DNA of 64,000 bases from Eledone cirrhosa (Eukaryota). The notes under the pieces were generated by a model, which worked only from the letters and a program-made list of their open reading frames with translations, searched no databases and was not told the origin of the DNA. Positions 30,449 to 63,825 of this stretch are shown piece after piece. The DNA lies in NCBI GenBank assembly GCA_964016885.1, contig OZ024763.1:3782001-3846000 (forward strand), given 5' to 3'. A program made the translations under genes and the position numbers. Positions within the stretch are counted from its first letter, which is position 1; each line of letters starts with the position of its first letter.

Positions 30449-30608
30449 ATAGGAGAAAGTATGACACCGACGGCAGAGCTCAAGCCGTTTCGACGGCTAT
30501 TTCTGCCGTCGGGTTCATACTTTCTCCTATTACCCACTCTATTACCCTAAGTATTGAGTACTCTGGTGCGATATGGTCCATCTGGTTCCTTACCACAACT
30601 CCTTCGTT
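30449..30608 (+). mobile_element. Hairpin-plus-tail (Penelope-like) element; hairpin collapsed in the unit-2 copy at 46280-46390
   Basis: ATAGGAGAAAGTATGA...TCATACTTTCTCCTAT followed by the family tail. Confidence 0.55.
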
Positions 30609-31259
30609 ATATATACATATATATGAATGACGCATGGCAAATTTAATTTACGATACATTAGTGCAGTACTGCCAATCCCGTTGTTGTGGCATCGAATAAA
30701 CACTAAACTGTTAAGAAGGAAGTTTGAAAATGTGTCTTAATATATTAAAAAGCACATTCGTGTGTGTGTCTGTGTGTAACTATACTAGATATAAACACTA
30801 ATTTCCCTCTTTAAACTATCTCACATACACACGTTTTCACGCATTCTTATGTATATAGGTATTGTAGTTATGAAGTAACTACATACTGTATGATCAAATA
30901 TATTCGAAGTCCTGTCAATCACGTTGTGGTTTCCACTAAACATTAAACTCTTAACAAAAAAGTCTGAAAATGTCTTAATATAATCAAAGGCATACTTGTG
31001 TGTGTGTGTCTGTGTTATGCATAACTATACTAGATATAAACACGGATCTCCCTTTCTCACACAAACACACCCTTTGTATAGGAATGACGCAATGACAGGA
31101 GTTGTATTTATGAAGCATCTGTAACTACATATTGTATGTTCAAATATTCGAAGTTGAAATCAACGTTAGTTCGATGAGATATGAACTTATGGAGGTAACA
31201 TGGAACCCATATGTAACCGGTCGACTTGCTCACAAGGACGACCAAATAAAACACATAAA

Positions 31260-31810
31260 TGTGTGTGTGTGTTATGTATTTATATACTAGATATCCACGT
31301 CAACAGGAAGACTGTAGATGGCCAATTGAAAGTTCGAATCAACTATAAACCAATGAGGAGTTTTGAAAAACTTTAAATAAAACTCATAAATGTGTGTGTG
31401 TCTGTGTGTTATATATAACTATACTAGATATAGACGTCAACAGGAAGACTGTAGATGGCCAATTGAAAGTTCGAATCAACTATAAACCAATGAGGAGTTT
31501 TGAAAAACTTTAAATAAAACACATAAATGTGTGTGTGTCTGTGTGTTATATATAACTATACTAGATATAGACGTCAACAGGAAGACTGTACATGGCCAGT
31601 TGTAAATTCGAATCAACTATAAACCAATGAGGAGTTTTGAAAAACTTTAAATAAAACACATAGATGTGTGTGTGTCTGTGTGTTATATATAACTATACTA
31701 GATATAGGCGTCAACAGGAAGACTGTAGATGGGTAATTGTAAGTTCGAATCAACTATAAACCGATGAAGAGTTTTGAAAAACTTTAAATAAAACACATAA
31801 ATGTGTGTGA
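31260..31810. repeat. 137-bp tandem repeat (4 units; 2 units at 46680-46950 and 62070-62340)
   Basis: CAACAGGAAGACTGTA at 31301, 31438, 31575 and 31712. Confidence 0.9.
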
Positions 31811-32244
31811 GTCTGTGTGTTATGTATATAAGATATGGGAACCCCCCTACGTTGTCGATCGACTTGCTCGAAATAGTAGCCAAAGACTGCTATTTCTAGC
31901 AGGTTTACTGCTGTCCTGTAGACGCACAAGAAAAACCGGAAGTGGACGCCATTAAAAAACTTTGGCTTAAAATCAGGCAAAAGTTTTTAAACAATAGAAA
32001 ATTTAATGTAAACAAACCAGGGCGTTTTTGCCAAGAAAGATAACTCTTGTCTTACTTAATGGCAAAAATCGAGACAATAATTTTGTGTGTGTGTCTGTGT
32101 GTTATGTATACAAGATATAGACGCCATTTTGAAGCCCGTACGTGGTCGGTCGACTTACTCGAAATAGTAGTCAAAGAGAGGAGATTTTTTTTCACCCGAT
32201 ACAAAAAGTAGGTTTATAAATATTAATTTTCACTATATTTTTAA

Positions 32245-32351
32245 GGCGGTCTCGTTGGCCGAGTGGTCCGGTGCGTTGAGTCTGCTGAGATACTGGTCGG
32301 GGGTTCGATTCCGGCCAACGTCTACACATAGGGGGTCTTATTAAACTTTTT
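32245..32351 (+). ncRNA. Putative Pol III tRNA-derived small RNA unit (~105 nt)
   Basis: TATAAATA at 32215 (about -30), A-box TGGCCGAGTGG at 32256-32266, B-box GGTTCGATTCC at 32302-32312, T5 terminators at 32347 and 32355. No canonical cloverleaf. Confidence 0.55.
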
Positions 32352-32384
32352 CAGTTTTTATACTAAGAGATAAAATAAAAACTG

Positions 32385-32491
32385 AAAAAGTTTAATAAGA
32401 CCCCTTATGTGTAGACGTTGGCCGGGATCGAACCCCCAACCAGTATCTCAGCAGACTCAACGCACCGTACCACTCGGCCAACGAGACCGCC
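32385..32491 (-). ncRNA. Mirror-image Pol III tRNA-derived unit, convergent with 32245-32351
   Basis: Same TATA/A/B/T5 elements on the minus strand. Confidence 0.55.
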
Positions 32492-32881
32492 TTAAAAATA
32501 TAGTGAAAATTAATATTTATAAACCTACTTTTTGTATCAGGTGAAAAAAAATCTCCTCTCTTTGACTACTATTTCGAGTAAGTCGGCCGACCACGTAGGG
32601 GCTTCAAAATGGCGTCTATATCTTGTATACATAACACACAGACACACACACAAAATTTTTGTCTCGATTTTTGCCATTAAGTAAGACAAGAGTTATCTTT
32701 CTTGGCAAAAACACCCTGGTTTGTTTACATTAAATTTTCTATTGTTTAAAAACTTTTGCCTGATTTTAAGCCAAAGTTTTTTAATGGCTGCTTCTTCCGG
32801 TTTTTCTTGTGCGTCTACAGGACAGCTGTAAACCTGCTAGAAATAGCAGTCATAGCAACTCACTCACATATATTTATTTAT

Positions 32882-33215
32882 GAGGGATTCTCAACCGGGG
32901 GTGCACACCCCACGGGGAACAATTTGAATATAATAGGGGTCAATTTGAAAGTGATATTATACGACCTAACCTCCTGTTACACTTCGTCTACACATGCTAT
33001 CGTGTATCTGGCAGCATCTACGAGAAGTTTGTTTACACTTTGCGGTTTGCTTTGATCATCGCTGAATCGCAGCTTTGTTTAAATAAAGGGTTTCTACTTT
33101 ATATTACAGTAATAACACTTTTACAAGACTCGGATTGTTTTTATATTAAAGGGGGACATAAACATATTTTAAATGTTGAGGTGGGGCATGGTGCAGAGAA
33201 GGTTTTGAACCACTG
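32882..33215. mobile_element. Degenerate hAT(Charlie)-like MITE (also at ~48011 and ~63411)
   Basis: Ends AGGGATTCTCAACC ... GGTTTTGAACCACTG. Confidence 0.5.
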
Positions 33216-34956
33216 ATATATATATATTCTTTCTGTTGTTTTTTAAACTCTGAACTCAGCATTTTTCTATTGTTCTCCGGGATTCTAGCATGTATGTATT
33301 TTATATATATATATATATATATGGCAGTCAACCTCACTTGGCACAGACTCGAAAAAGCCGCCGCTAATCGTAGTCGTTGGGGTTATAATTAGACTAAAGT
33401 GCTTCCACTGGACACCATTAGCTGGTTGTGATCATTGGAGAATTCTTTCTGCACTGAAAGAGCCTAGAACTAAAAGATATATATATAGATGTCGAAACGG
33501 CACTAGCACAGCCGTTGGGGTCCTGAATATTTTCACATATATATATGTGTGTGTATTCTGCGACATTTATAATTACATAAGTAAATATATTTGTATAAAA
33601 AAATTTGAGGTTTAAATACTTTATTTTTTATATCACCTACCGGTTGGCGATTTAAACTGTTGGCTGGGACAATGACCAACTAGTCAGTAAGATTCGAACT
33701 CACTATGTCTGGCGATATATAGTCATAATTTGTTTCAAACTTCGATCGCGGTTTCAAAACAAGCTTGCTTTCATATATGTGTGCATGTATGTTCAGCGGC
33801 ATTTATATTTACAATCATATAAATAAGTATCTATTTATTTAAATTTAAATACTTTATATTTGAATGAAGTTCTGTAAGTAACCTGGTGGCTTAGTTGGCA
33901 AGACTGCTCAAATATGTGGCTTCTATTATGAAGTTATAAGTTCATTCCCTACCCAGGATTGTAGAATTAATTTTATTTAGTTATTATTTAATCAATTATT
34001 TTAACAAACAAATTATATCTATAAAACGCCAAATATAGTGAGTTCAAACCTGACTGATATGCATGGTATATGTATATGTTTCATTATACAGCGACACAAT
34101 ACACAGGAACTTATAAAGATATATATATATATATATATATATATTGTCCAGGAGCTTCGAATTTAGTGGGAATTGGTACAACTCTCAATTGGAGCTAGTC
34201 CCTGCAAGATAACACCCGATATTTTATACATGATTATTTAAAGGTGAACAAAAACCAAAGAACATTGAGCAGTGTTTCTCAACCTTTTTACCCATGTCGA
34301 TCCCTTGAAATAGTTTATGTCTAATGGGAAGCCCTGCATAAAATATACTTTTTCTATCTCTAGAGCAGTGGTTCCCAAATCATGTGCTGCGAGATGAAAC
34401 AAGATGAGCTGCAAAAGACTAAGATTCAGTTTTAAGATGTGAAAAATATAAAACTGAAATTTCATATAAAAGTTCAAATATAGCTACAGCCACAAACCTA
34501 GGCTCCACACCCCGCAATGCAGAGGCGAGTAAGATAGTACCGAGGCCTGACTCACCTCTTCCACTCCATTGAGACCTCTGCCATACTTGGTCTCCATACT
34601 GCTGATTTCCTCCATAAAGTCGGGAGGAAAGATGGCAGGAGCCTCGTGAGGAGGGGCGACTATTGTAGCAGGTGTCTCTGGCCTTGCTCCGAGGTAACGC
34701 TTTTACGTTTCTTCCACGGGTTGCAGCTGAGGGACCACTTAGACTGGGGGTGAAGTGTCTGTTCCTCCCCCGACTTGTTACTTCTTTTTTTTTCTCCTTT
34801 TCATTTTCTTTTCTCTTCTTGCTTATCTCTGCTATACCATGGCATCAAAAACATATATGGTATATGTATGTATGGTATAGGTGTATTTATATTTAGGATA
34901 GTTATCGAAGGTAAATAGACTGGTTGGAGCAATAACAGTCTTGTTTATGTATATAC

Positions 34957-35290
34957 ATCATCATCATCATCATTTCATTTTACGTCAGCTTTTTCCCTGC
35001 TTGCAAGTGTGTGACGGGAACTGATTCTGGCTTGATTTCTACAGCTTGATGCCCTTCCTAACACCAACCTCATTTATAGTGAGTACTGGGTGCTTTTTTT
35101 CCGTGGCACCTCCACGCCCACTTTTGCAGTGGAATGATATGGACCCCAGTCCCTATCATCTCATTTCTACAGCTGAGTAAACTGGAGCAATGTGCAATAA
35201 AGTGTCTTGCTCAAGGAAACAACACATCTACCCGGTCTGAGAATTAAACTCACAACCTTTTGATTGCAAGACCAATGCTCTAACCACTGG
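34957..35290 (-). mobile_element. SINE family A, inserted only in unit 1
   Basis: The equivalent unit-2 site (~50445) is an empty (TA)n. Confidence 0.85.
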
Positions 35291-35408
35291 TCTCATATAT
35301 ATATGTTTGTGCTTGTATTTCCATAGAAAAGGTAAAGAAAAGAAGAGTGCTCTATGTATTGTACAGAGCTATTTAATTACATAATAAACAACAGAATATA
35401 ATTAATCC

Positions 35409-37790
35409 ATGCAAATAGACTTAGAATGGAAAACATTCAGACAGAGAAGAATGGATAATGAGCGTCGTAGGAGAAATTGCCCAGCAATTAATATTAATGG
35501 AAATGTAGAAGAATTTCATATTAGTGATATGAATGTTTCGTGTGATCACTGTGGAGCTTTGAGATTTAGAAATGAAAATTGTAACTGTTGTAATAAAGGA
35601 AAGGTTGTGTTGTCTCCATTGCAAATATACCCTGAGAGACTGAGAAATCTCTTTGAAAGAGGCCAGGAAGCAGTTGATTTCACAGAAACATCTGCAATTA
35701 AAACTACATTTCTTTCACTTCATTTGGTGTTAAACTTGCCTTACCACCTGGCAGAGGCCCGTATAGCTTTCATATTCAGGGTCAAACATATCACTACACC
35801 CCACCTCTGTAACCTGCAGAAAATACACTACAATATGGCCAGTTATATATTATTGATGGGAATGAAGCTGTGTAGCACAGATTGGAAGTAGCACCAAATA
35901 ATTGTTTCTGGCACAAGGCCAGCAATTACCCCAGTATATTACTGGTACTTTATTCTATCGACCTCATAAGGATGAAAACTAAGTCAACCCAGAACGTAAA
36001 GGGTCATAACCCTATGCTGCAAAGCATGGTGTCTGACGCTCTAGCGATACTGCCAATCCACCACCCTAGTACTGACAAATAATGACTGCTCACCACAAAA
36101 AATGACTATGATAAGAGAGGTGTTGCATGAATGTAATCCATATGTCGAAGTGTACAATACAATGCATGGCATCAAACAGCAAAGAGCAAGAAGAGAAAAT
36201 TGTTGTGTACAGAACTGTGAATTTAGATTTAGAAGAGGATCAGATATGAGCTGCTATAATTTACCAACTAGTAATGATAGCTGTTGTTTTGTGGGGGATT
36301 GAGGGCACACCACCTATACAAAGAGATATTATCATCTTTCCTAAAGACTATCCTCCTCAGAAAATACCACATAATTCATGCCACTTGGACCTCATGACCG
36401 ACCCATAATGGTGAATTTTGGTGGCATAGTGACATGGAGAGGAATGCAGGACCTGTGTTTGCAATAGACTGACAATGCAGGAGTATTACATATACTGTAT
36501 AGCATATAGAGGAGGATTTAGTGCGATATATAGGGCAGGCAAATTATTTTAGCAGTATTTAGTGGATGCCTATATGAAAGTAGAGGAATGCAGGCTTCAA
36601 TATTTGAGGAACAATCAAGCCCAATTGTGAGTGGATGAGTATAATGGTTTAATGAATTATCTAAACAGATGATAACACTGAGCCTTAAGAAATGAAGACA
36701 AGATAAGAAACAGAGAAGACATTGACAGAATTGTGTCAGCAGAAATACCTGCATTGGAAGATGATCCAGTACTACATGAGCAGGTTTAAAAGTTTATGAT
36801 CCATGGGCCATGTGGTTCTGGAAACCCTTTTTCCCCATTTATACAAAATGGATTTTTCCAAAAGAACTATCCAAAAACCTACAGAAGGAAAACATTATTG
36901 AATCTAAATGGATACCCAGAGTACATGAGGTGCAAGACAGGAACTGCAGTGTAAATTGGATGACATTCAGTAGATAACAGGAATGTTGTGCCATTTAATG
37001 CCATTTTGCTTAAGAAATATTGTGCACATATTAATGTTGAAGTTTGCCTTTCTGTAAAAAGTGTCAAGTACCTCTTTAAATATGTTACATAGGACATGAT
37101 TGTGCATCTATAGAAGTAACGAATAATGCATTACCTAATGAGGCTCAGAACCAACACAACCATGATGAAATAAGAACCTATCTTTGTTGCAGGTATGTGT
37201 TTCAGCCAGAAGCAGTGTCGTGTCTCTCGGAATTTAAGCTTCATGGTACATCACATACAGTATACAGACTAGCCACACACCTGGAGAACAAATAGAGTTT
37301 ACTTTCAAAGAGGCAATGTTCAGGTTGCGGTAGAAATGCAGGGACACCGAGACACTACCCTTGCTGCCTGGTTCAAGCTAAATGAACTTCTGAACTTGCT
37401 TACACCTTCTGGGATGCCGCCTCACAAACTCCAATTAAAAGCAGGATCAATAATAATGCTTCTATGGAATATTTCAATCCAGAACAGATTATGTAATGGC
37501 ACAAGATTAGAAGTAGTGGAACTGCATCAACATTTTATCGAAGCTTCTCATATCTATGGTCCTTTGATAGGCAGGTGTGTTTTGATCCCAAGACTGAAGT
37601 TAGCCCCCAGTGGTGCCAACATCCCTTTTACTTTGGAAAGACCCCAGTTGCCATTAAGACTGTCATATGCCATGACAATCAACAAGAACCATGGTCAAAT
37701 ATATGATAAAGTGGGTCTGTTCCTCCCTGAGCAAGTATTTAACCCTGGACAATTGTATATGTTGCTTTTTCAAGAGTTCACAGACAAATG
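35409..37790 (+). pseudogene. Decayed, internally deleted Helitron RepHel (Rep plus Pif1-like helicase)
   Basis: Motifs in order: C..CGALRF..E...CC.KGKV.L; GRGPY.F.I.GQ.YH; NPY; YNLPT; LF*QYLVDAY.KVE..RL; IDRIVSAEIP; MIHGPCG; VDNRNVVP; HINVE.C.SVKSVKYLFKYV; TTL.AWF.LN; then PSGMPPHKL.LK.G..IMLL.N...LCNGTRL..AMTINK..GQ...GQLY. Many stops and frameshifts, and a SINE B insertion at ~35900-36065. Confidence 0.93.
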
Positions 37791-38322
37791 TAAAAATTAA
37801 TCCTACCAACCCCACCACTCCTACAACTGTTAGCCCACCCCCAGCACCACCCAACCTCCGTTCTAGTCCTACCGTTAGAACCAATGCTGCTTACCCTGCC
37901 TCTTTTACTAGTTCACTCCCTCGCTCGAATTTCAAAGTTGGCCCTCTACAGTTGGTCGTTGCCAGCTCACCACCTGATTGTGCTCTCTGTGTCCGCACTA
38001 GCCGGTACCTAAACAATAAAATGTCACCTGTGCTACCAAAACTACCACAGGAACTGTTTCGGCATCAGCAAGGCTCAAACCGAAAGGCTTCAATACTAGA
38101 CCTGTAATCAGGGCCGCTTTAGCTCCGACGACCAGCTATCTACCGAGTGTGTCTCGATGGAGGGGACACGAGACCAGCAAAGTCCAAGGAGTAGAGACTA
38201 CTAAATGAGATACGGTCCTAGCTATGTTAAGAATATATATAAGAAACATGTTCTATACATTTAAGAAGACAAGAGAAATAAATATTTATATCATATGCTT
38301 CACAAATGACTGGCTCACTGAT

Positions 38323-38575
38323 TTAACCCATTAGCATTTAAACCGGCTGTATCCGGCCAGAATTATCTGGCTGTATCCGGCTAGAATTATCTCACCTCTT
38401 CCTGTTCAAACTGGCTGTAATGAGCCACTCAAACTTATGTTAAGGTATTGTTCTTAAAATAAATAATATCAAAATCTCATAGATTCGATATTATGTAAGA
38501 TAACTATGTGAAGTAAAGTCTTTACCGTGAAGATATAATAGTAAATATAGATTACTGTAAATGCTAAAGGGTTAA
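38323..38575. mobile_element. piggyBac-like MITE with TTAA target-site duplication
   Basis: TTAA-CCCATTAGCATTTA ... TAAATGCTAAAGGG-TTAA. Confidence 0.8.
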
Positions 38576-38819
38576 TCAGTTGAATTCAGCTTGACTCTAG
38601 AATCGATTTGCTCATTAAATGCAATGGAGATTAGAATTAGAATATGTGTATGTCCATTGTTGTTATACAGTTATACAAGATTTTTGTGATCCACAAAATC
38701 TACAAAATCAAGGCAGATCCAAAAAGATTTACAAAAATCCCACAAAAATTCCACAAAAATCCTACAAAAATCTCGCCAAATCCTACAATTCCACAAATCT
38801 GAGAAATCTGTCAACTTAC

Positions 38820-38888
38820 TTGAAATCCCCATTATCACCTTCTGGTTTTATGTCAGTTTCCTCACCTTTGAAAGCCTTGACTTTATAT
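38820..38888 (-). CDS. SLC7 cationic amino-acid transporter fragment, exon C (unit 1)
   Basis: Pyrimidine tract with ttttag acceptor and GTAAGT donor, 69 bp. Continues exon B in frame: (R)YKVKAFKGEETDIKPEGDNGDF, completing the CAT LRY motif. Confidence 0.65.
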
Positions 38889-39027
38889 CTAAAACTCCAG
38901 AAAACAAAACAAGAGACACAAAGAAACAAGAAAATATAATGAACAAGAGAAAACAAGATCTTCACCTCCTCTAATGATTTAGTCAGAAAATATCTATAAA
39001 GAGGTTTGTTAATTCGAATGTTTACAG

Positions 39028-39364
39028 CAGAGGTTCTCAAAATGGGCATTAAGTGGGGACATTGAGAAGGTCTGAGTGGACGCTGGGGCCTCCAGTGGCG
39101 GTAGATATGATATAATAGTATATTAAATATCAAATGATACATATTATATATAAATATAGTAAAATATAAAATATATAATATCTATTTATACATAGTATAT
39201 ATTATATTATATTATTATATATAAATTAACGATTTCATTTATTATATATTATTTACAATTTGTGTGTAGGTAAGTCTCTCTGTAAATATGGTTGGGGTCG
39301 TGCTGAGTGTATTACATGACCATGAGGGGGCGGGGTAGTGGCCCAAACAGTTTGACAACCTCTG
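39028..39364. mobile_element. hAT(Charlie)-like MITE in the SLC7 intron (unit-2 copy 54284-54618)
   Basis: TIR CAGAGGTTCTCAAA / TTTGACAACCTCTG; 8-bp TSD GTTTACAG / GTTTACAC. Confidence 0.85.
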
Positions 39365-40118
39365 GTTTACACTATCTTTACTAGTGGATAGATCATTGTG
39401 AATATTTGCAGTGATAGAATAAAGACTTTAATATTTAATGTCATGCTATCATAATACTGTTTTCTACTTTTCAAGAATGTCTTGCTAATGGGGTTTATGT
39501 GGTTTGTTAATTCAAATGTTTATAGCATCTTTACTAGGGTACAGATCATTGCGAAAATGTGTTGTATAAAAGTAAAAACTTCAATATTTATTAATGTGAT
39601 ACAGTAATAATGTTATTTTATATGTTTAAGCAATATTTTGCTAATGTGGTTTGATGTGGGACAGGACGTTAAGAGCCAATCTATCTCTATATTACTAAAT
39701 GTCTGCGATTGCTTGCTGTGATTGCAGTAGGTGATAAGAAAGCGGAAGTAACAGTAGTAACAGTGGCAAAAAGAAAGGGAGGCGACAGTGGAAAATACAA
39801 AAATAGATAGAGTGAAGGAGAGAAAAAGAGACAAAATAAGTAGATAGATAAAAATGTAAAGTATTGTAGGAAGCTGATGATTCAGATGATGCTAAAGTTC
39901 CATTTTCTTGTTAGTTTACTCTCTCGGAGAATAAATGATGTACGAATGTGACAAGTAGAGAGATGCTGTGCTTAAAAGTACCCATCTAACCCATGCAAGC
40001 GTGGAAAAACAGACACAAAAATGATGAGGACGATGATGATATATGTATATGTATGTATATATATATGAGACCATACATACATACATATATACCTATATAC
40101 ATATATAGATATACTCAC

Positions 40119-40218
40119 CGTAAGATGACACACTTGGCCACAAATGTGTAGGCTAGAAGGGTTCCTATAGACATCATATTCACCAGTTCAGTGAGATCAA
40201 ACATGAGAGCTGTCAAAC
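40119..40218 (-). CDS. SLC7 cationic amino-acid transporter fragment, exon B (unit 1)
   Basis: AG/GTGAGT boundaries. GLTALMFDLTELVNMMSIGTLLAYTFVAKCVILR matches the CAT motif FDL..LVD.MSIGTLLAY.LV..CV..LR. Confidence 0.85.
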
Positions 40219-40269
40219 CTACATTGATGGTGTTTTGGGTGAGGTAGAACAAAGAGAGAAAGTTTGATA

Positions 40270-40510
40270 TTAAGTTGGGTCACAAGGTTACAGAGAAGGG
40301 GGCTGTATTAAAGTTGAGGTCACAAGGTTACAGAGAAGGGGGTGGTGGTGGCTGTATTAACGTTGGGATCACAAGGTTACAGAGAAGGAGAGACTGTATT
40401 AAAGTTGGGATCACAAGGTTACAGAGAAGTGGGGGGGGGGCTGTATTAAAGTTGGGGTCACAATGTTACAGAGAAGGGCGGGGGACTGTATTAAGGTTAG
40501 GATCAGAGTG
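40270..40510. repeat. ~42-bp G-rich intronic minisatellite (expanded at 55530-55980 in unit 2)
   Basis: Unit AAGTTGGGATCACAAGGTTACAGAGAAG(G)nCTGTATT. Confidence 0.85.
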
Positions 40511-40534
40511 TATGGGGTGATATATATATATATG

Positions 40535-40886
40535 CAGTGTAAATGTGCGTGAACGACCCAGCATAAATGTGTTGAGAGAGAAACTGTGTCTGAGAGGGAT
40601 AGAATGTAGTGTATGGGAGAGGAGACTGAGGTGGTATGGACATGTGATGCACATGGAGGATGACTGATGGGTGAAGAAGTGCCAGGAAATGCCAGTTGAA
40701 GGAAGACGTGGTAGAAGTAGACCATGAAAAACATGGGCGGTGGTGGTGAGAACAGACCTCAGATCATTGAAACTCACGGTGGAGATGACGAAGGACCGTG
40801 ACGAGTGGAGAGATGCTGTTCTGAATAAGACCCGTCCCACCCATGCAAGCAGGGAAAAGCGGACGTAAACTGATGATGATGATGAT
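40535..40886 (+). mobile_element. RTE 3' fragment (unit-2 copy ~56005-56360)
   Basis: Near-identical to 9830-10190, with an (ATG)n tail. Confidence 0.85.
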
Positions 40887-40895
40887 ATATATATA

Positions 40896-40964
<69 letters not shown>

Positions 40965-41179
40965 TAGTATTAGTTTAACTTAGAGCCACAAGATCACAGA
41001 GAAAGGTTGTAGTGGTGTAAAGAGGCAGGCAGACAGGCAGCCAACTACACAGACAGACAGACAGATAGCTAATCAGATAGACTGATAGACAAACAGATGG
41101 ACATCTAAGCAGACAAACAAATAGTCAGACAGGCAGACATACAGATATGGCCCTAAAGGAACAAAAGAAATGGAATGAC

Positions 41180-41319
41180 CTGAAAACAATCCAGCTACCA
41201 GTGTTGCTAAAACAGGGGTCTTGAATCTTTCGGACACACTTGAGAGTTGACCAAAGATGATTCGGTCCTCTGCCATGGCATATACCACCCTGGGTAGGGG
41301 AAATATTGAACCAACCATG
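41180..41319 (-). CDS. SLC7 cationic amino-acid transporter fragment, exon A (unit 1)
   Basis: Acceptor tatttcag, weak donor GTCATT, 140 bp. MVGSIFPLPRVVYAMAEDRIIFGQLSSVSERFKTPVLATLVAGLFS matches the CAT motif GSMFP.PR..YAMA.DG..F.......KTP..AT. Confidence 0.85.
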
Positions 41320-41729
41320 CTGAAATATAATGGGGTGGATATATAGAGTAATACAACGGTTGACATACTATATATCCCTTGTATAATGTATTATATGAAT
41401 CGATATATAGTATATATATATATAGATATATTTATTTTTTTATGTGGTCTACCCCTGGTGGTAGGGTCCGTACCGTAGATAGAACTCAATGTAATCTGAT
41501 GGCGAGTAATCCAGTGAAATCCATCGAAAGGTTCCGTGTTCCACTGAGTTAATTCCTTAGATACAGAGTCAGAGATTAGGTATTAATTTAACAATGAAAA
41601 TAAGGAGATGGTCTGATCGAACCTATATATGAAGTCTGATAGTATACAGTAATATAACTGCTATAGATCAGACAATATGATCAACCCTCTGAAATGATTG
41701 TAAAACAATGATAAATAGGTAAAATAACC

Positions 41730-42680
41730 TGACTTGATTTTGGCTTGGTTTCTACGACTGGACATCCTTCCTAACGCCAACCACTTTACAGTATGTACTG
41801 GGTGTTTTTTTCTGCTCACCTACACGACCACTTTACAGTGTGTATTGGGTGTTTTTTTGCTGCTCGCCTACATGACCACTTTATAGTGTGTACTGGGTAT
41901 GTTTTGCTGCTCGCCTACACGACCACTTTACAGTATGTACTGGGTGTTTTTTACTGCTCACATACACGACCACTTTACAGTGTGTACTGGGTATGTTTTG
42001 CTGCTCACCTACATGACCACTTTACAGTGTGTACTGGGTGTGTTTTGCTGCTCGCCGACACGACCACTTTACAGTGTGTACTGGGTGTGTTTTGCTGCTC
42101 GCCTACACGACCACTTTACAGTGTAGACTGGACGCTCACTTTTGTCATGACACCTATATGACCACTACAGTGTGGGCTGGGCTCTTTTGGTGTGACTCCA
42201 GGGGGTGGGGGATCACTTTATAGAGGAGGTGGGAAACTTGGGAGGGGTAGAGAATATGCTTTGGCAAATTGGGGACGTAGGTACAAGAGAGGTTTATGAG
42301 AGGAGAGATGGTAGGGAATGGTGTTGCCAGCTAAGTATAGAGGGCGGGTCTTCTGTAATACTTCACAATACCAGAGGTGACGGTCCTGTGAGGTGTAATT
42401 GTGAAAGGTCAGCTCTTATTACCTCATCCCAAGTTTTCCTAGGCCTGCCTACTCCATGGCTACCACCAACTTTGAGTACTCTGCATCTTTTTATACAGTT
42501 GGCATCCTTTATACGCATCACATATCCTTACCAACACAATCTCCTCTACTTCACACAACATCTGATCCCTCTTATGTCTAATTTATCGCGTATTTCATTA
42601 ATGTTTTGTCATTTGCGTATATTGCTATTACACATCCATCGAAGTATGGAGGCTTCATTTCTGTCCAATCTTCGCAGGTC
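41730..42680 (-). mobile_element. Decayed RTE 3' fragment with a 47-bp tandem expansion in its 3' UTR (unit-2 copy ~57530-58380)
   Basis: Minus-strand RL.RNEAS.LRWMCN..GRPRKTWDE motifs; repeat unit ACCACTTTACAGTGTGTACTGGGTGTGTTTTGCTGCTCGCCTACACG. Confidence 0.8.
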
Positions 42681-42690
42681 CTATTTGTTC

Positions 42691-43016
42691 GCAATATTAG
42701 GACAACATGACCCTCCCCAAATATAACATTAAGTTTAGAATATTCGTAACTTGTGTGTGTCTACGTTTAATTAAGACATTGCCTTGTTTACTGCTATCGT
42801 CACACATTAAAATATGGCTGTGATTGTCTTTGCTTTCGTCTGTTTGTTTTAAATCATTTAATACTGTTTGTTTTTCTTCAAATATTGTTTACTTTTTATA
42901 AAACTAAATTTAGATTAACGGCGTTATTTGTTTTGAAGGTTTTTTTTTAAATATGAAATCGTGTGTTGAAAGAGATATTGTTATATTCGGGAAAGGTCAT
43001 GTTGTCCTCATATTGC
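42691..43016. mobile_element. MITE with ~38-bp TIRs (unit-2 copy 58391-58716)
   Basis: GCAATATTAGGACAACATGACCCTCCCCAAATATAACA ... TGTTATATTCGGGAAAGGTCATGTTGTCCTCATATTGC. Confidence 0.75.
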
Positions 43017-43861
43017 CCCCAAAATATATCAATAAGTTTATATTATTCGTAATTCGTCCGTGTGTCTACGTTTCATTAAGACACCGCTTTATTTACTGGT
43101 GTTGACACTTTTGTTGTAAACAGGTTAAATTTGATATATTAACACATCAGACATTTTTCTTCAAAATTTGGTTTGTCTTATATTCCAAATATTACTGCTA
43201 GATGTCTCTGTAAAGGTTCCATTTCAATCAATTTCTAATTTCAATTGTATACTGTTGAAGATGAAGTCATTTGTCCTTATAATCACCAGCTTGTCTCAAA
43301 TTAATTCATTTTGTTGCTTCCTTCATTCCACGTTCTATATTAATTTAGGATTTTGTTCTAATGTAATAACATTTTTATTTTCAAAGACTTACATTCTGTT
43401 TGATTCTTTCTCGTGTGTATTTTTATCTGTTGTATAAAAAATGTATGTGAAGGGGAAAAAAAATAACACGACTTTCTTTAACCGCTGCACAAAGCTAACT
43501 GACGGTGTTTAGTAAGACTGGTAAGTACTCGACAGTGGTAAACATCATTTATATACCGTGTAAATCGGAGAGATGAACCAAACCTGGATATATTACTCTT
43601 TTTTCCCCCAACATTTTCCGAGGCCCTGTCCTTCATGATTCAGCAGTGAGACAGTGACAGGGTTTCAAGCGCTACCAACAATTGCAATAGGCTATATTTA
43701 ACAAGAAACTGTTATGTCGTGGTTATTGCTATAATGTGTAGTGTGTGTTTCCATCTTTAGCTGGGATTGTAGAATTACTTTTATTTAATTGTTAACAGAG
43801 ATATGATGTATATAGCGTTGTTGTACGTTTAAATCATACAGACACACTTACTTACGTATGT

Positions 43862-43940
<79 letters not shown>

Positions 43941-44045
43941 AAGAGAGAGAAATGATTGCGGGATGACAGAATTGGGGAGAAATATTTGCTGAGCACATCA
44001 CTGTAGCATCAATTCTACAACACACACGTATATATTTAGGGGCAC

Positions 44046-44720
44046 GGCAGATCAGATTGTTGTGAAATCAAGGAAATCAACCCTTAAAAGATGACAAATT
44101 GAATCGAGTTATGTTTTATCAAAGCCCCAGATAATTAAAACCCAATGTTGGCCCCTTTTGTAGTATGAATTAGACGGAGAATGCCATGAACATCATCACG
44201 TAATTTTTGCTTTGAAATAGAAAGTAGGTTTATAAATATTAATTGTCAGTATGTATTTGAAGTTGTCTCGGTAGCCTAGTGGTATCAGGGACGGTGGAGA
44301 TCCTGGTCTGGAGTTCAATCTCGGGTAAGATCTACACTGAACATTTTAATTTTTTGTCTCATAAGATAAAAAAAATATTAACAATTAATAACATCCTCTA
44401 AATGTAGTTGTGGACCAAGCTTGAACCCCCGGCCAAGTTTCCCACCATCTCTTATATTTACCACTACGCCACCAAGGCGCTTTTAAAAACCGACTACATA
44501 TTATTATATATAAACCTACTTTCTGTTTCGAAGCGAAATTGATGTGGTGGCCTTCATGGCTTTCCCGTCTCTGTTAGTCTCGCAACAAAGGGGTCGACCA
44601 TGTCTTTCATCCCACCGGAACTTTGATAAATTATAACTTGCTTTTGTTATTCATAGCTCTAGGGTTTATTTGAACCTACATTGACTATCTGCAATAATCT
44701 CTACTAACTTCAAATCTGCC
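44046..44720. repeat. Old, imperfect palindrome with two convergent tRNA-derived cassettes (unit-2 copy ~59763-60438)
   Basis: Ends GGCAGAT...ATCTGCC. Both arms carry AAAGTAGGTTTATA(A/T)ATA upstream of an A-box (TAGCCTAGTGG / TGGCGTAGTGG) and a B-box (GAGTTCAATCT / GGTTCAAGCT). The centre TAAGATAAAA resembles that of the 32-kb palindrome. Confidence 0.75.
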
Positions 44721-47014
44721 ATACCTAAGTATTGTGTGGGAGAAAGATTTGAACTTGATGCGACGTTCTCGTAAATTGATAAACCTGATTCCTATATAAT
44801 ATAATAGACATATAATTATAATATGTATATAATTGTAATGAAAAATAACTTATTAAACAAACTTTAATTATATTTAAAAACAATAACAAAAACAAATGAA
44901 TGAAAGTAAGGAATTATTTTTATTTAGTAATTATATTTTTATTGTTTGTTTTACTGCATTAACTGCTGAATGTGTCTTTTATTTTTGTTTTTTCTTACCA
45001 TTTACCATGGCTGCAACGAAACTGGATTATTATCAAGGATTACTAGATGATGGCATTTCTTTATTGTACTATTTTTCAAAACAATGGACATCGAGACATT
45101 TGTCAAAATACCTAGGATAAAGGTAACGTCTGTCTGTATGCAACATTTCATTTTTAAATTCTTGTGTTCTTATGGGTTAAATTTAAGCCGCCCAGAACAG
45201 CAATGCCAGAACCAATAATCAAGGCAGGGAGTCAGTATCGAAAGTAACCATATTCAGGAGGTACGAATAATCTAAAAAGAATTTTTTTTAATAAGTTAAA
45301 CAATGTTCTTAAAAAAAAAAAAGAAACGATTAAAGTTTCATTATTGCTGAACAGACCTCCATAGCATCAAATCTACAACACTCACACACAAAAAGATTTG
45401 AATCAAACACTCTAATGTAAAGACAATCGTAGCCACAATTTAATGTCTGACAACATTTCACGATATAAATAAAGCCACATAAGTAGAGTTTAATGATTCA
45501 CAATTTATTTGCTCATATCTATTTTAATCATACATATGCTGCAGATATATATTTTCAATGGTTTACGTTTACATTATGATTTTGTTGAAAGTTTCTGATG
45601 TATTTAGTGTCTTAGAGTTACGTCCCTTAGTGTCTTCGCGGCGTGGAGTTGTCCTTTTAAATTCTGAGTTCAAATCCCGCCGAGGTTAGCTTTGCTTTTC
45701 ATCTTTAAGCAATCCATAAAATAAAGTACCAGTAACGCACTGGGGTCGATTTAATCGACTTCCCTTCCCCCCCAAAAAAAATTGCTGGCCTTGTGTCTAT
45801 TGTAGAAATCAATATTTCTTATAAGCAGCCAAATAGATTTACACTTTCTTTTGGAATAATGTATTAACATTTACAAGTTTATTCAGAATTCGTAGTTATA
45901 GAAATGACATTATTTCGTGTAATCAACGTTAGTTCAATGAGATATGAACTTGTGTAGGTAACCTGGAACCCATATGTAACCGCTCGACTTGCTCACAAGG
46001 ACGACCCAAAAGAACACACAGATGTGTATGAGTTATGTATAACTATACTAGATATAGACGTCAACAGGGAGACTGTACATGGCCAATTGTAAGTTCGAAT
46101 CAACTATAAACCGATGAGGAATATTGAAAAACTTTAAATAAAACACAAATGTGTGTGTGTGTGTGTGTGTTAAGTATCCCCCTCTCTCACACTTCTTAAT
46201 GTGACGAGTTGATCTTTTTATATGGTCGTATAGTTTGAGTACTCTTGACTTACACACACACATATATATATATATACACATAGGAGAAAGTGGTCATACT
46301 TTCTCCTATTACCGACTCTGTTACCCTAAGTATTGAGTACTCTGGTGCGATATGGTCCATCTGGTTCTTTACCACAACTCCTTCGTTATATATATTTATA
46401 CATATATATGAATGACGCATGGCAAATTTAATTTACGATACATTAGTGCCGTACTGCCAATCCCGTTGTTGTGGCATCGAATAAACACTAAACTGTTAAG
46501 AAGAAAGTTTGAAGAAGAAAGTATTTATGAAGCATCTGTAACTACATATTGTATGTTCAAATATTCGAAGTTGAAATCACCGTTAGTTCAATGAGATATG
46601 AACTTGTGTAGGTAACATGGAACCCATATGTAACCGGTCGACTTGCTCACAAGAACGACCAAATAAAACAGATAAATGTGTGTGTGTGTGTTATGTATTT
46701 ATATACTAGATATCCACGTCAACAGGAAGACTGTAGATGGCCAATTGAAAGTTCGAATCAACTATAAACCGATGAGGAGTTTTGAAAAACTTTAAATAAA
46801 ACACATAAATGTGTGTGTGTGTGTTATATATAACTATACTAGATATAGACGTCAACAGGAAGACTGTAGATGGCGAATTGTAAGTTAGAATCAACTATAA
46901 ACGGATGAGGAGTTTTGAAAAACTTTAAATAAAACACATAAATGTGTGTGTGTATGTGTGTTATGTATATAAGATATGGGAAGCCCCCTACGTTGTCGGT
47001 CGACTTGCTCCAAA

Positions 47015-47980
47015 GACTGCTATTTCTAGCAGGTTTACTGCTGTCCTGTAGACGCACAAGAAAAACTGGAAGTGGCAGCCATTAAAAAACTTTGGCTTAA
47101 AATCAGGCAAAAGTTTTTAAACAATAGAAAATTTAATGTAAACAAACCAGGGTGTTTTTGCCAAGAAAGATAACTCTTGTCTTACTTAATGGCAAAAATC
47201 GAGACAAAAATTTTGTGTGTGTGTCTGTGTGTTATGTTTACAAGATATAGACGCCATTTTGAAACCCCTACGTGGTCGGTCGACTTACTCGAAATAGTAG
47301 TCAAAGAGAGGAGATTTTTTTTCACCCGATACAAAAAGTAGGTTTATAAATATTAATTTTCACTATTTTTTTAAGGCGGTCTCGTTGGCCGAGTGGTACG
47401 GTGCGTTGAGTCTGCTGAGATACTGGTCGGGGGTTCGATTCCGGCCAACGTCTACACATAGGGGGTCTTATTAAACTTTTTCAGTTTTTATACTAAGAGA
47501 TAAAATAAAAACTGAAAAAGTTTAATAAGACCCCCTATGTGTAGACGTTGGCCGGAATCGAACCCCCGACCAGTATCTCAGCAGACTCAACGCACCGTAC
47601 CACTCGGCCAACGAGACCGCCTTAAAAATATAGTGAAAATTAATATTTATAAACCTACCTTTTGTATCGGGTGAAAAAAATCTCCTCTCTTTGACTACTA
47701 TTTCGAGTAAGTCAACCAACCACGTACGGGTTTCAAAGTGGCGTCTAAAAATTGTAAACATAACACACAGACACACACACAAAATTTTTGTCTCGATTTT
47801 TGCCATTAAGTAAGACAAGAGTTATCTTTATTGGCAAAAACACCCTGGTTTGTTTACATTAAATTTTCTATTGTTTAAAAACTTTTGCCTGATTTTAAGC
47901 CAAAGTTTTTTAATGGCTGCTTCTTCCGGTTTTTCTTGTGTGTCTACAGGACAGCAGTAAACCTGCTAGAAATAGCAGTC
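47015..47980. repeat. Near-perfect palindrome, copy 2 (arms 47015-47491 / 47505-47980)
   Basis: Same loop and convergent tRNA-like cassettes as copy 1. Confidence 0.97.
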
Positions 47981-48476: not shown

Positions 48477-50572
48477 GTCAACCTCACTTGGCACAGACTC
48501 GAAAAAGCCGCCGCTAATCGTAATCGTTAGGGTTATAATTAGACTAAAGTGCTTCCACTGGACACCATTAGCTGGTTGTGATCATTGGAGAATTCTTACT
48601 GCACTGAAAGAGCCTAGGACTAAAAGATATATATATAGATGTCGAAACGGCACTAGCACAGCCGTTGGGGTCCTGAATATTTTCACATATATATATGTGT
48701 GTGTATTCTGCGACATTTATAATTACATAAGTAAACATATTTGAATGAAAATATTTGAGCTTTAAATACTTTATTTTTTACCAATAACATTAAGAAAGGC
48801 ATGAACAACACCACATGTTAATTACTTTAATATTGAAAGTAGGCTTATAAATATTAAATTCAGCAGATTTTTGTAGCCTTCATGATTGTCTGGTGGGAGA
48901 TTCCAGAGATGGTGGAGGTCCTGGTTTGGGGCTCAATTCTGGTTATGGGTTACATATAGGGTTTCATGCTTTTTTTTTTCTTTTTTTTTCTCAGCTCTAG
49001 ATATAAATATATATATAAGGTAATTTGGTAGAATTGTTAGAACATCAGATAGAATTCTTTGCAGTATTTTTTCCAGTTCTTTCTACCCATTCGGGGTCGA
49101 TAAGTCTTGAATATGTCTAACGTAGCAATAACTGGAGCTACTTAACCAAGTTTTCCCAACCTAGTCGATATCACCTACTGGTTGGCGATTTAAACTGTTG
49201 GCTGGGACAATCACCAACTAGTCAGTAAGATTCAAACTCACTATGTTTGGCGATATATAGTCATAATTTGTTTCAAACTTCGATCGCGGTTTCAAAACAA
49301 GCTTGCTTTCATATATGTGTGCGTGTATGTTCTGCGGCATTTATATTTACAATCATATAAATAGGTATCTATCTATTTAAATTTAAATTAAAATTAAAAT
49401 ACTTTATATTTGAATGAAGTTCTGTAAGTAACCTGGTGGCTTAGTTGGCAAGACTGCTCAAATATGTGGCTTCTATTATGAAGTTATAAGTTCATTCCCT
49501 ACCCAGGATTGTAGAATTAATTTTATTTAGTTATTATTTAATCAATTATTTTAACAAACAAATTATATCTATAAAACGCCAAATATAGTGAGTTCAAACC
49601 TGACTGATATGCATGGTATATGTTTATCTTTCATTATACAGCAACACAATACACAGGAACTTATAAAGTTATATATATATTGTCCAGGAGTTTCGAGTTT
49701 AGTGGGAATTGGTACAACTCTCAATTGGAGCTAGTCTCTGCAAGATAACACCCGATAGTTTATACATGATTATTTAAAGGTTGAACAAAAACCAAAGAAC
49801 ATTGAGCAGCGTTTTTCAACCTTTTTACCCATGTCGATCCCTTGAAATAGTTTTTATGTCTTGGTTCCCAAATCGTGTGCTGCAAGATGAAACAAGATGA
49901 GCTGCAAAAGACTACGATTAAGTTTTAAGATGTGAAAAATATAAAACTGAAATTTCATATAAAAGTTCAAATATCGTTACAGCCACAAACCTAGGCTCCA
50001 CACCCCGCAATGCAGAGGCGAGTAAGATAGTACCGAGGCCTGACTCACCTCTTCCACTCCATTGAGACTTCTGCCATACTTGGTCTCCATACTGCTGATT
50101 TCCTCCATAAAGTCGGGAGGAAAGACGGCAGGAGCCTCGTGAGGAGGGGCGACTATTGTAGCAGGTGTCTCTGGCCTTGCTCCGAGGTAACGCTTTTACG
50201 TTTCTTCCACTGGTTGCGTCTGAGGGACCACTTAGACTGGGGTGAAGTGTCTGTCCCTCCCCCGACTTCTTACTTCTTTTTTTTTCTCCTTTTCATTTTC
50301 TTCTCTCTTCTTGCTTATCTCTGCTATACCACGGCATCAAAAACATATATGGTATATGTATGTATGGTATAGGTGTATTTATATTTAGGATAGTTATCGA
50401 AGGTAAATAGACTGGTTGGAAGAATAACAGTCTTGTTTATGTATATACATATATATATATATATATATGTTTGTGCTTGTATTTCCGTAGAAAAGGTAAA
50501 GAAAAGAAGAGTGCTCTATGTATTGTACAGAGCTATTTAATTACATAATAAACAACAGAATATAATTATTCC

Positions 50573-59670: not shown

Positions 59671-61929
59671 GATTGTGGGATGACAGAATTGGGGAGAAAT
59701 ATTTGCTGAGCACATCACTGTAGCATCAATTCTACAACACACACGTATATATTTAGGGGCACGGCAGATCAGATTGTTGTGAAATCAAGGAAATCAACCC
59801 TTAAAAGATGACAAATTGAATCGAGTTATGTTTTATCAAAGCCCCAGATAATTAAAACCCAATGTTGACCCCTTTTGTAGTATGAATTAGACGGAGAATG
59901 CCATGAACATCACCACGTAATTTTTGCTTTGAAATAGAAAGTAGGTTTATAAATATTAATTGTCAGTATGTATTTGAAGTTGTCTCGGTAGCCTAGTGGT
60001 ATCAGGGACGGTGGAGATCCTGGTCTGGAGTTCAATCTCGGGTAAGATCTACACTGAACATTTTAATTTTTTGTCTCATAAGATAAAAAAAATATTAACA
60101 ATTAATAACATCCTCTAAATGTAGTTGTGGACCAAGCTTGAACCCCCGGCCAAGTTTCCCACCATCTCTTATATTTACCACTACGCCACCAAGGCGCTTT
60201 TAAAAACAGATTACATATTATTATATATAAACCTACTTTCTGTTTCGAAGCGAAATTTATGTGGTGGCCTTCATGGCTTTCCCGTCTCTGTTAGTCTCGC
60301 AACAAAGGGGTCGACCTTGTCTTTCATCCCACTGGAACTTTGATAAATTATAACTTGCTTTTGTTATTCATAGCTCTAGGGTTTATTTGAACCTACATTG
60401 ACTACCTGCAATAATCTCTACTAACTTCAAATCTGCCATACCTAAGTATTGTGTGGGAGAAAGATTTGAACTTGATGCGACGTTCTCGTAAATTGATAAA
60501 CCTGATTCCTATATAATATAATATACATATAATTATAATATGTATATAATTGTAATGAAAAATAACTTATTAAACAAATTTTAATTATATTTAAAAACGA
60601 TAACAAAAACAAATGAATGAAAGTAAGGAATTATTTTTATTTAGTAATTATATTTTTATTGTTTGTTTTCACTGCATTAACTGCTGAATGTGTCTTTTAT
60701 TTTTTCTTACCATTTACCATGGCTGCAACGAAACTGGATTATTATCAAGGATTATTAGATGATGGCATTTCTTTATTGTACTATTTTTCAAAACAATGGA
60801 CATCGAGACATTTGTCAAAATACCTAGGATAAACGTAACGTCTGTCTGTATGCAACATTTCATTTTTAAATTCTTGTGTTCTTATGGGTTAAATTTAAGC
60901 CGCCCAGAACAGCAATGCCAGAACCAATAATCAAGGCAGGGAGTCAGTATCGAAAGTAACCATATTCAGGAGGTACGAATAATCTAAAAATAATTCTTTT
61001 TAATAAGTTAAACAATGTTCTTTAAAAAAAAAAAAAAAACTATTAAAGTTTCATTATTGCTGAACAGACCTCCATAGCATCAAATCTACAACACTCACAC
61101 ACAAAAAGATTTGAATCAAACACTCTAATGTAAAGACAATCATAGCCACAATTTAATGTCTGACAACATTTCACGATATAAATAAAGCCACATAAGTAGA
61201 GTTTAATGATTCACAATTTATTTGCTCATATCTATTTTAATCATACATATGCTGCAGATATATATTTTCAATGATTTACGTTTACATTATGATTTTGTTG
61301 AAAGTTTCAGATGTATTTAGTGTCTTAGAGTTACGTCCCTTAATGTCTTCGCGGCGTGGAGTTACGTCTCTTTAAATTCTGAGTTCAAATCCCGCCGAGG
61401 TTAGCTTTGCTTTTCATCTTTAAGCTATCCATAAAATAAAGTACCAGTAACGCACTGGGGTCGTTTAATCGACTTCCCTTCCCCCCAAAATTGCTGGCCT
61501 TGTGTCTATTGTAGAAATCAATATTTCTTATAAGCAGCCAAATAGATTTCAACTTTCTTTGGGAATAATGTATTAACATTTACAAGTTTATTCAGAATTC
61601 GTAGTTATAGAAATGACATTATTTCGTGTAGAAAATCTATGATATTATCCCGATTAATATTATACGTTGTCAATATGAAATAGGAAGGCATGGTGAATAA
61701 ATGTCCGACTTTATATTTAGCCTACTACAAACACACATCGAAAGTATTCAGTAAATAAAAGGCACTATCGAACGGAACTGTATACAATTGTAAGCTGTAT
61801 CATAGCAAAATTATCTCTGTAAAATATCATTAAAAAATTATGAGGAAATAGTTTAATAGAGCGTAGACTAAACCATAGGCATGTCCAAGACAGTTGAAGT
61901 GTTGCGAGATTCACTTTGCTTTTTCCTTT

Positions 61930-63825
61930 GAAACTACATATTGTATGTTCAAATATTCGAAGTTGAAATCACCGTTAGTTCAATGAGATATGAACTTGTG
62001 TAGGTAACATGGAACCCATATGTAACCGGTCGACTTGCTCACAAGAACGACCAAATAAAACACATAAATGTGTGTGTGTGTTATGTATTTATATACTAGA
62101 TATCCACGTCAACAGGAAGACTGTAGATGGCCAATTGAAAGTTCGAATCAACTATAAACCGATGAGGAGTTTTGAAAAACTTTAAATAAAACACATAAAT
62201 GTGTGTGTGTGTGTTATATATATAACTATACTAGATATAGACGTCAACAGGAAGACTGTAGATGGCGAATTGTAAGTTCGAATCAACTATAAACGGATGA
62301 GGAGTTTTGAAAAACTTTAAATAAAACACATAAATGTGTGTATGTGTGTTATGTATATAAGATATGGGAAGCCCCCTACGTTGTCGGTCGACTTGCTCTA
62401 AATAGTAGCCAAAGACTGCTATTTCTAGCAGGTTTACTGCTGTCCTGTAGACGCACAAGAAAAACCGGAAGTGGCAGCCATTAAAAAACTTTAGCTTAAA
62501 ATCAGGCAAAAGTTTTTAAACAATAGAAAATTTAATGTAAACAAACCGGGGTGCTTTTGCCAATAAAGATAACTCTTGTCTTACTTAATGGCAAAAATCG
62601 AGACAAAAATTTTGTGTGTGTGTCTGTGTGTTATGTTTATAATTTTTAGACGCCATTTTGAAACCCGTACGTGGTCGGTCAACTTACTCGAAATAGTAGT
62701 CAAAGAGAGGAGATTTTTTTCACCCGATACAAAAAGTAGGTTTATAAATATTAATTTTCACTATATTTTTAAGGCGGTCTCGTTGGCCGAGTGGTACGGT
62801 GCGTTGAGTCTGCTTAGATACTGGTCGGGGTTTCGATCCCGGCCAACGTCTACACATAGGGGGTCTTATTAAACTTTTTCAGTTTTTATACTAAGAGATA
62901 AAATAAAAACTGAAAAAGTTTAATAAGACCGCCTATGTGTAGACGTTGGCCGGAATCGAACCCCCAACCAGTATCTCAGCAGACTCAACGCACCGTACCA
63001 CTCGGCCAACGAGACCGCCTTAAAAATATAGTGAAAATTAATATTTATAAACCTACTTTTTGTATCGGGTGAAAAAGAAATCTCCTCTCTTTGACTACTA
63101 TTTCGAGTAAGTCGACCGACCACGTAGGGGCTTCAAAATGGCGTCTATATCTTGTAAACATAACACACAGACACACACACAAAATTTTTGTCTCGATTTT
63201 TGCCATTAAGTAAGACAAGAGTTATCTTTCTTGGCAAAAACACCCTGGTTTGTTTACATTAAATTTTCTATTGTTTAAAAACTTTTGCCTGATTTTAAGC
63301 CAAAGTTTTTTAATGGCTGCTTCTTCCGGTTTTTCTTGTGCGTCTACAGGACAGCAGTAAACCTGCTAGAAATAGCAGTCATAGCAACTCACTCACATAT
63401 ATTTATTTATGAGGGATTCTCAACCGGGGGTTCACACCCCACGGGGAACAATTTGAATATAATAGGGGTCAATTTGAAAGTGATATTATACGACCTAACC
63501 TCCTGTTACACTTCGTCTACACATGCTATCGTGTAACTGGCAGCATCTACGAGAAGTTTGTTTACACTTTGCGGTTTGCTTTGATCATCGCTGAATCGCA
63601 GCTTTGTTTAAATAAAGGGTTTCTACTTTATATTACAGTAATAACACTTTTACAAGACTCGGATTGTTTTTATATTAAAGGGGGACATAAACATATTTTA
63701 AATGTTGAGGTGGGGCATGGTGCAGAGAAGGTTTTGAACCACTGATATATATATATTCTTTCTGTTGTTTTTTAAACTCTGAACTCAGCATTTTTCTATT
63801 GTTCGCCGGGATTCTAGCATGTATG

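Follow-up and report, generated by a model that had tools for sequence, protein, structure and literature searches.

Results

A palindrome within a tandem segmental duplication

The window analysed here, a stretch of 64,000 nucleotides of Eledone cirrhosa DNA, contains a palindrome of about 1 kb at positions 31885..32851. Self-alignment and comparison of the duplicates defined two arms of 477 nt each (31885-32361 and 32375-32851), which flank a 13-nt loop and are 97% complementary, with mismatches at 14 out of 477 positions. The palindrome that had been predicted from the sequence alone is therefore real. Two further copies, both 97% identical to the first, are found at 47015..47980, in the next duplication unit, and at 62414..63380. 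All three were located where the original prediction had placed them, but they cannot be counted as independent because they lie in register within one tandem segmental duplication and represent a single local expansion. The duplication unit that carries the first palindrome extends over 31500..46660 (plus strand); such units measure about 15.2-15.4 kb, are 93-97% identical to each other and occur five times consecutively on C24.

Upstream of the left arm, a 137-bp tandem array (31244..31828, plus strand) is common to the copies on C18, C24 and C25. Its repeat unit, which is also found at 46661-46957 and 62053-62364, contains B-box-like and weak A-box-like words, and related B-box-like upstream words are present in other subfamilies as well. 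The window also harbours a short element of very high copy number, which lies between TA repeats and has a long 5′ hairpin (30449-30608), and a 6.2-kb satellite with 176 copies of a 36-bp unit and a strong strand skew (11099-17345). The duplication unit contains broken Helitron RepHel pieces (Pif1_2B), found in the window at 35406-37800 and 50552-51570 and comprising a zinc-finger-like start and the Pif1 2B domain. A Helitron was rejected as the carrier, since only one other family region examined had a PIF1 match and the subtelomeric unit had nothing but common repeats in common with the window.

The genome comprises 3.0 Gb in 1,796 contigs. A genome-wide search with a 24-mer from the unit body, allowing at most one mismatch, returned 38 matches, corresponding to 32 arms in 16 palindromes plus six solitary copies. 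Fourteen of the palindromes were located on C24, one on C18 and one on C25. The arm length of 477 bp holds for the window, but it is variable in the genome: the self-match spanned from 568 to 2,291 bp among the 16 copies, and inverted blocks stretched two copies to about 3 kb. Comparison of the outer ends of four long palindromes revealed neither a common terminus nor an evident duplication. Since arm length varies and these four copies share no terminus, the palindrome does not behave as a transposon with fixed ends. The long inverted arms, together with the outer tandem 137-bp repeats of some copies, would fit the proposal that the 1-kb palindrome is itself a foldback transposon or MITE. The observations on arm length and outer ends, and the fact that 14 out of 16 copies sit on one chromosome with kilobases of flank in common, largely refute this explanation, which we regard as extremely improbable. 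An assembly artefact was also ruled out, because the two arms differ at 14 sites, the 16 copies carry differing variants and older, diverged pairs are present.

Promoter and terminator elements

In the left arm (plus strand), a 29-bp TATA block (32204..32232), which is the most conserved part of the family, places TATAAATA some 28 nt upstream of the predicted start. It is followed by an A box (32256..32266) and a B box (32302..32312). The right arm repeats this arrangement on the minus strand, with the TATA block at 32504..32532, the A box at 32470-32480 and the B box at 32424-32434. The predicted Pol III transcript of the left arm, of about 108 nt, would cover 32243..32351 (plus strand), and that of the right arm, which has the same sequence, 32385..32493 (minus strand). 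Both would run into a two-way terminator block (32347..32389), in which tandem T5 runs on each strand surround an asymmetric loop; from copy to copy, this loop can point either way.

As predicted, all six arms of the window presented the TATA block, the A box, the B box and the double T5 run, and all of them carried TTTTTCAGTTTTT. In type-2 Pol III small-RNA genes, consensus A and B boxes are expected near +12 to +22 and near +54 to +64, respectively. Here, the A box was found at +14 to +24 and the B box at +60 to +70 relative to the inferred start, and both matched the consensus given in excerpts of PMC7279448, and the unit thus has the box layout of this class. An oligo-T terminator is provided by the T5 run at +105, in which five of the six solitary copies of the subfamily end. 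The combined pattern of TATA, A box, B box and T4 occurred six times in the window and was absent from each of 200 block shuffles. These results support the earlier view of a type-2 Pol III architecture that, unlike ordinary SINEs, has its own upstream TATA.

The prediction that the unit lacks a tRNA cloverleaf was also borne out. ARAGORN found no tRNA gene in the window or in 54 loci, and Rfam returned no match at gathering score, RF00005 included, in the window and four loci. A scan by E-value below that threshold only gave miRNA-precursor matches, which were produced by the palindrome itself. In addition, the family profile met 16 loci with tRNA hits only at E=0.42, and a tRNA gene was rejected. 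Judging by its A and B boxes, the unit may be of tRNA origin. Separately, dispersed tRNA-like copies with a common upstream of about 70 bp and varied anticodons were observed on several chromosomes; they look like a mobile element with a tRNA cloverleaf.

A vault RNA was rejected as well, since the unit did not match RF00006 and this model matches a separate cluster on C3 that lies outside the family profile. That cluster (221.18-221.25 Mb) comprises 14 tandem matches that score above the Rfam cut-off for vault RNA. Each of them has a T-run and is preceded by AT-rich, TATA-like sequence, and the cluster likely represents the vault RNA genes of the animal. Regarding U6-like type-3 promoters, the family profile had no match in 20 U6 loci of the genome, and the family upstream profile matched only simple repeats when run against U6 loci. 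Profile comparison thus rejected a promoter that the family would share with U6, vault-like or tRNA loci. About 33 U6 snRNA genes with 5′ variants are arranged in tandem on C19 (31.78-31.84 Mb) with a spacing of about 1.8 kb, and single U6 genes beside this array have a different upstream. Finally, the copies of a SINE would be expected to start where transcription starts, without any upstream DNA, and to end in one common 3′ tail. This class was rejected because 32 out of 38 subfamily copies retain the TATA and the partner, and the solitary ones end in different repeats.

Solitary copies and the transcript they imply

None of 24 solitary copies reached the TATA, and seven of them started within 2 nt of the predicted start. 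In the subfamily of the window, all six TATA-less copies began at or after this position; five ended in the first T-run and were directly followed by another repeat, while the remaining one ended 15 nt earlier. These copies appear to be retrocopies of a Pol III RNA of about 108 nt. Because their 5′ limits agree with the predicted start and their 3′ limits with the first T-run, we place this RNA at about 32243-32351, and the length of about 105 nt originally proposed agrees with the 105-110 nt supported by the retrocopy ends. Retrocopies of complete transcripts come from several subfamilies, and transcription of the family is well supported, although indirectly. One retrocopy (L046) was found at the loop position of an element of the type seen at 30449-30608. 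Three sequencing runs covered all 30 bins with a pattern like that of genomic DNA and hence give no measure of expression.

A one-base deletion in the B box was present at exactly eight genomic places, namely the six solitary copies and the two arms of the C18 palindrome, and was absent from the copies of the window. Moreover, all six subfamily retrocopies were closer to C18 than to the window. As the deletion is common to the solitary copies and the C18 arms only, C18 or its recent ancestor was the transcribed source of these retrocopies. The arms of the C18 palindrome are 100% identical, and three GCGCATGCGC motifs, which we take to be NRF1-like sites, lie directly upstream of each of its TATAs. 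The subfamily of the window has lost the distal upstream motifs found in the rest of the family. Several C24 copies carry substitutions in the A box or the B box, some of them on both arms, and thus at least some duplicated copies decay. For the window's own copies, transcriptional activity and silence seem equally plausible.

A genome-wide family of convergent pairs

A 25-nt TATA block gave 440 exact matches in the genome and 3,986 when as many as two mismatches were tolerated, of which a sample was inspected, and its reversed control gave none. A profile search identified 175 units, distributed over 43 regions; neighbouring units were convergent in 62 cases, divergent in 34 and tandem in 21. 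TATA-bearing units form convergent pairs around a two-way T-run terminator, and T-runs on both strands are kept in many pair centres. Since regions picked by the TATA bias the estimate of conservation, a sample based on the body only was also drawn, consisting of the first 30 of 85 matches to an RNA-body pattern. Twelve of these belonged to convergent pairs with TATA, one of which was interrupted by a SINE; the remaining 18 stood alone and lacked the TATA. Apart from the palindromes, the window itself contains two pairs of unlike partners and one single unit. The pair at 44220..44523, whose partners are 63% identical, exemplifies the usual form of the family; its duplicate lies at 59937..60240 and the single unit at 48835..48957 (plus strand). 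The original reading of a small-RNA cassette is supported as regards a Pol III unit of about 105 nt, but it missed the family around this unit, which numbers hundreds to thousands of units.

In a set of 52 representatives, conservation of the TATA block was 87-100%, a figure inflated by the choice of most regions through the TATA pattern, and most B-box positions at 81-98%. The A box was intermediate, and many spacer and tail positions reached only 35-70%. TATA patterns were absent from viral and metagenome contigs. No description of such a family was found in the accessible literature, and face-to-face Pol III gene pairs of this kind apparently had not been described before; an unclassified-repeat entry may exist in Dfam/Repbase.

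Origin of the near-perfect symmetry

Partner identity was 60-79% in 24 out of 28 pairs and 96-100% in the other four. The less similar partners had their closest resemblance in other pairs rather than in one another, and the near-perfect pairs fell in three separate clades, which suggests that near-perfect palindromes arose in three lineages. Two observations bear on arm-to-arm recombination. First, 11 palindromes could be oriented by their flanks, and the asymmetric loop pointed one way in seven of them and the other way in four. Second, 17 variants were found on both arms of one copy when 7.8 were expected (p=0.0012; arms permuted among 15 copies, with C18 left out). As three related copies supply much of this excess, the evidence that arm-to-arm recombination acts on the palindrome arms is only moderate.

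The symmetry had also been read as a source of long dsRNA, generated by read-through or Pol II transcription. Under that explanation, the palindrome would be selected as a hairpin-RNA source for Dicer or ADAR. A hypothetical read-through RNA (32243-32494) indeed folds at -232 kcal/mol, near-perfect palindromes exist in three lineages and C18, the one source with evidence of transcription, has fully identical arms. However, the 24 pairs of unlike partners are too dissimilar to form a long clean stem, and tandem T5 runs guard both directions. The two arms also yield the same RNA rather than complementary RNAs, and both transcripts would stop before overlapping. The second T-run was reached in none of the six retrocopies, and only 1 of 100 A positions showed the A>G change that would indicate hyper-editing, although this sample is small. 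With both arms encoding the same RNA, no overlap and no read-through in the retrocopies, the dsRNA reading is unsupported. Long dsRNA as the purpose of the palindrome is unlikely, and we consider selection for such a hairpin source quite improbable.

Structure of the predicted RNA

The 108-nt unit of the window folded no better than its shuffles (z = -0.61), and RNAalifold returned no consensus structure for 50 units. Single family units often fold as two hairpins. When a two-hairpin structure was specified by us, its 5′ helix was 86% paired in the 50 units, and transitions in this helix kept pairing in 44 cases and broke it in 8. The corresponding figures were 7 and 12 for the inner helix and 60 and 34 for the 3′ helix; all of them are counts of cells, which are not independent, rather than of events on a tree. 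Only one of the eight pairs of the 5′ helix showed a two-sided change. Among the helices of the proposed structure, there is modest support that selection may act on the 5′ helix only.

Spread of the family

The family spreads as DNA, through segmental and subtelomeric duplication of unremarkable, repeat-rich DNA and, in its most numerous subfamily, as cargo of an element with terminal inverted repeats (TIRs). This subfamily accounts for 1,563 exact TATA matches, dispersed along chromosome C1 and beyond, and a convergent pair was present at all 30 sampled loci (25 distinct places). Its carrier element has a 14-nt TIR. Among 10 unit-containing spans from TIR to TIR, an 8-bp duplication was perfect in four, had one mismatch in three and was missing in three, and three of the four perfect duplications were not pure TA. 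Short TIRs with 8-bp target-site duplications were found for the carrier of this subfamily only, which we presume to be hAT-like on the 8-bp rule. The other end of the element had 676 matches genome-wide. Of 30 loci picked by the TIR, seven had units within 1.5 kb and five were complete and empty; since complete empty copies exist, the convergent pair is cargo rather than the core of the element. The pair block, of about 750 bp, ends discretely at TA repeats and occurs within the TIR element, in inverted orientation as well, or next to it. As a non-autonomous transposon family, the element has at least 676 ends and occurs empty or with a Pol III pair (L181:840-1825, L222-L251). No such TIRs enclosed the window palindromes, the nearest being a single end at 52693, with its duplicates, at a distance of 5 kb, and none flanked the C18, C21, C22, C25, C15, C26 and subtelomeric types on both sides (21 loci).

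Many exact TATA matches fell within 0.3 Mb of contig ends, in repeats of 15.7-21.6 kb. Such a repeat is common to C8, C9, C10, C11, C13 and C15 near their contig ends, where its units are nearly identical, and it carries three long-class Pol III units, some of them with duplicated B boxes. The subtelomeric unit and the window shared only common repeats.

This mobility raises the alternative that the pair is a selfish, non-autonomous mobile element. In that case, a block of about 750 bp would insert into TA microsatellites or travel within TIR elements, its Pol III promoters would serve to keep the block open or to prime its copying, and the RNA would be a by-product devoid of any host role. 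The dispersal of the most numerous subfamily with its transposon, the duplications that are perfect or differ at one position in seven of the ten spans and the discrete ends of the block at TA repeats all fit this explanation. There is also precedent in the TRIMp3 elements, which excerpts of PMC10886601 present as mobile DNA with Pol III promoters and no functional RNA. Against it, the TIR element is also found empty, the window and the seven types listed above lack such flanking TIRs, and the boxes and the 5′ helix are better kept than the spacers across subfamilies. We consider it rather unlikely.

Alternatively, the DNA itself could matter, with paired TFIIIC/TBP sites that delimit or anchor chromatin domains in, for instance, subtelomeric or duplicated regions. 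Boundaries made by tRNA genes and B boxes are known in yeasts; the promoter elements are the best-kept parts of the family, and the subtelomeric location of many matches would suit such a role. This explanation accounts neither for retrocopies of complete transcripts in several subfamilies nor for the pairing bias in the 5′ helix, and we judge it very improbable.

Discussion

Altogether, we favour, on balance, the interpretation that the palindrome belongs to a multi-copy family of convergent Pol III pairs and has recently been homogenised and locally duplicated; each arm would produce an RNA of about 108 nt with two hairpins. Transcription of each arm likely stops at the shared two-way T-run terminator. 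Very probably, Pol III is recruited to some members of the family by TFIIIC bound to the boxes and TBP/TFIIIB bound to the TATA. This would also happen in the germline or early embryo, in which the LINE machinery would occasionally copy the RNA by template switching. The near-perfect symmetry probably results from arm-to-arm recombination on an older pair of unlike partners, through conversion or inverted re-copying together with loop-flipping crossovers, and would be a by-product rather than a purpose. There is an even chance that the promoter and the 5′ hairpin are kept by selection and that the RNA is a structured, protein-binding molecule of the 4.5S/BC1 type, which would act neither as a tRNA nor as an siRNA precursor; a host function of the RNA is as easily argued for as against.

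The system closest in its working is that of the rodent 4.5SH and 4.5SI genes. As described in excerpts of PMC7279448, these also encode lineage-specific type-2 Pol III RNAs of about 100 nt from many copies within larger repeats. Their promoters combine A and B boxes with an element at -30 and with factor sites further upstream, and the 4.5SH genes number hundreds inside multi-kb tandem repeats. According to the same excerpts, animal type-2 non-coding RNA genes lack a canonical TATA, the TATA-like boxes of 4.5SH/4.5SI being non-canonical, and the 4.5S genes are arranged in tandem; here, a canonical TATAAATA lies in a conserved 29-bp block and the units form convergent pairs. No sequence relation between both families is implied.

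The family shares A and B boxes, a tRNA-like head and copies made by LINEs with tRNA-derived SINEs such as octopus OR1, OR2 and OK and the Ceph-SINEs (cited in PMC4758252 and PMC10886601). In contrast to these SINEs, most of its copies seen here retain both the terminator and the upstream DNA but lack a LINE tail, and its retrocopies are chimeras with several different repeats. In this respect they resemble the U6/LINE chimeras, in which template switching is held to fuse a piece of a retroelement to the 3′ end of a small-RNA copy, a process common to many LINE clades in the excerpted text of PMC4476161. They differ from them in that the passenger is an undescribed RNA, whose family does not match the type-3 promoter upstream of U6.

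Two parallels are looser than that with 4.5SH/4.5SI. Like the TRIMp3 elements Cassandra, Helenus and Ajax (PMC10886601, excerpts), the most numerous subfamily involves mobile DNA with two Pol III promoter copies derived from small RNAs; those elements have direct LTRs, a PBS, a PPT and 4-5-bp duplications, whereas the units here are inverted and, where a carrier is present, it has TIRs and 8-bp duplications. The C. elegans mir-1829 family also has type-2 Pol III units that are independent and combine box A and box B with a hairpin (PMC12487709, excerpts). Its pre-miRNA hairpin lies 3′ of box B and is processed, whereas the predicted hairpins of about 40 nt described here overlap the boxes.

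A bolder version of our interpretation seems unlikely. It holds that these units are a new class of Pol III genes, with thousands of members that always face each other in pairs and possess a 29-bp TATA element of their own, that they produce abundant structured RNAs with a host function, and that conversion into palindromes turns some of them into long dsRNA sources for editing or small-RNA pathways.

Lineage-specific Pol III RNAs, such as 4.5S, BC1 and snaR, are known mostly from mammals. If our interpretation is true, this family would add a class of Pol III units with a canonical TATA and a fixed convergent geometry that is missed by tRNA and Rfam scans. Since the retrocopies fix both ends of the RNA exactly and supply a diagnostic variant, expression, editing and function could be tested together in existing small-RNA data. 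In addition, the palindromes could serve as a small model for the formation of palindromes and their upkeep by arm-to-arm recombination.
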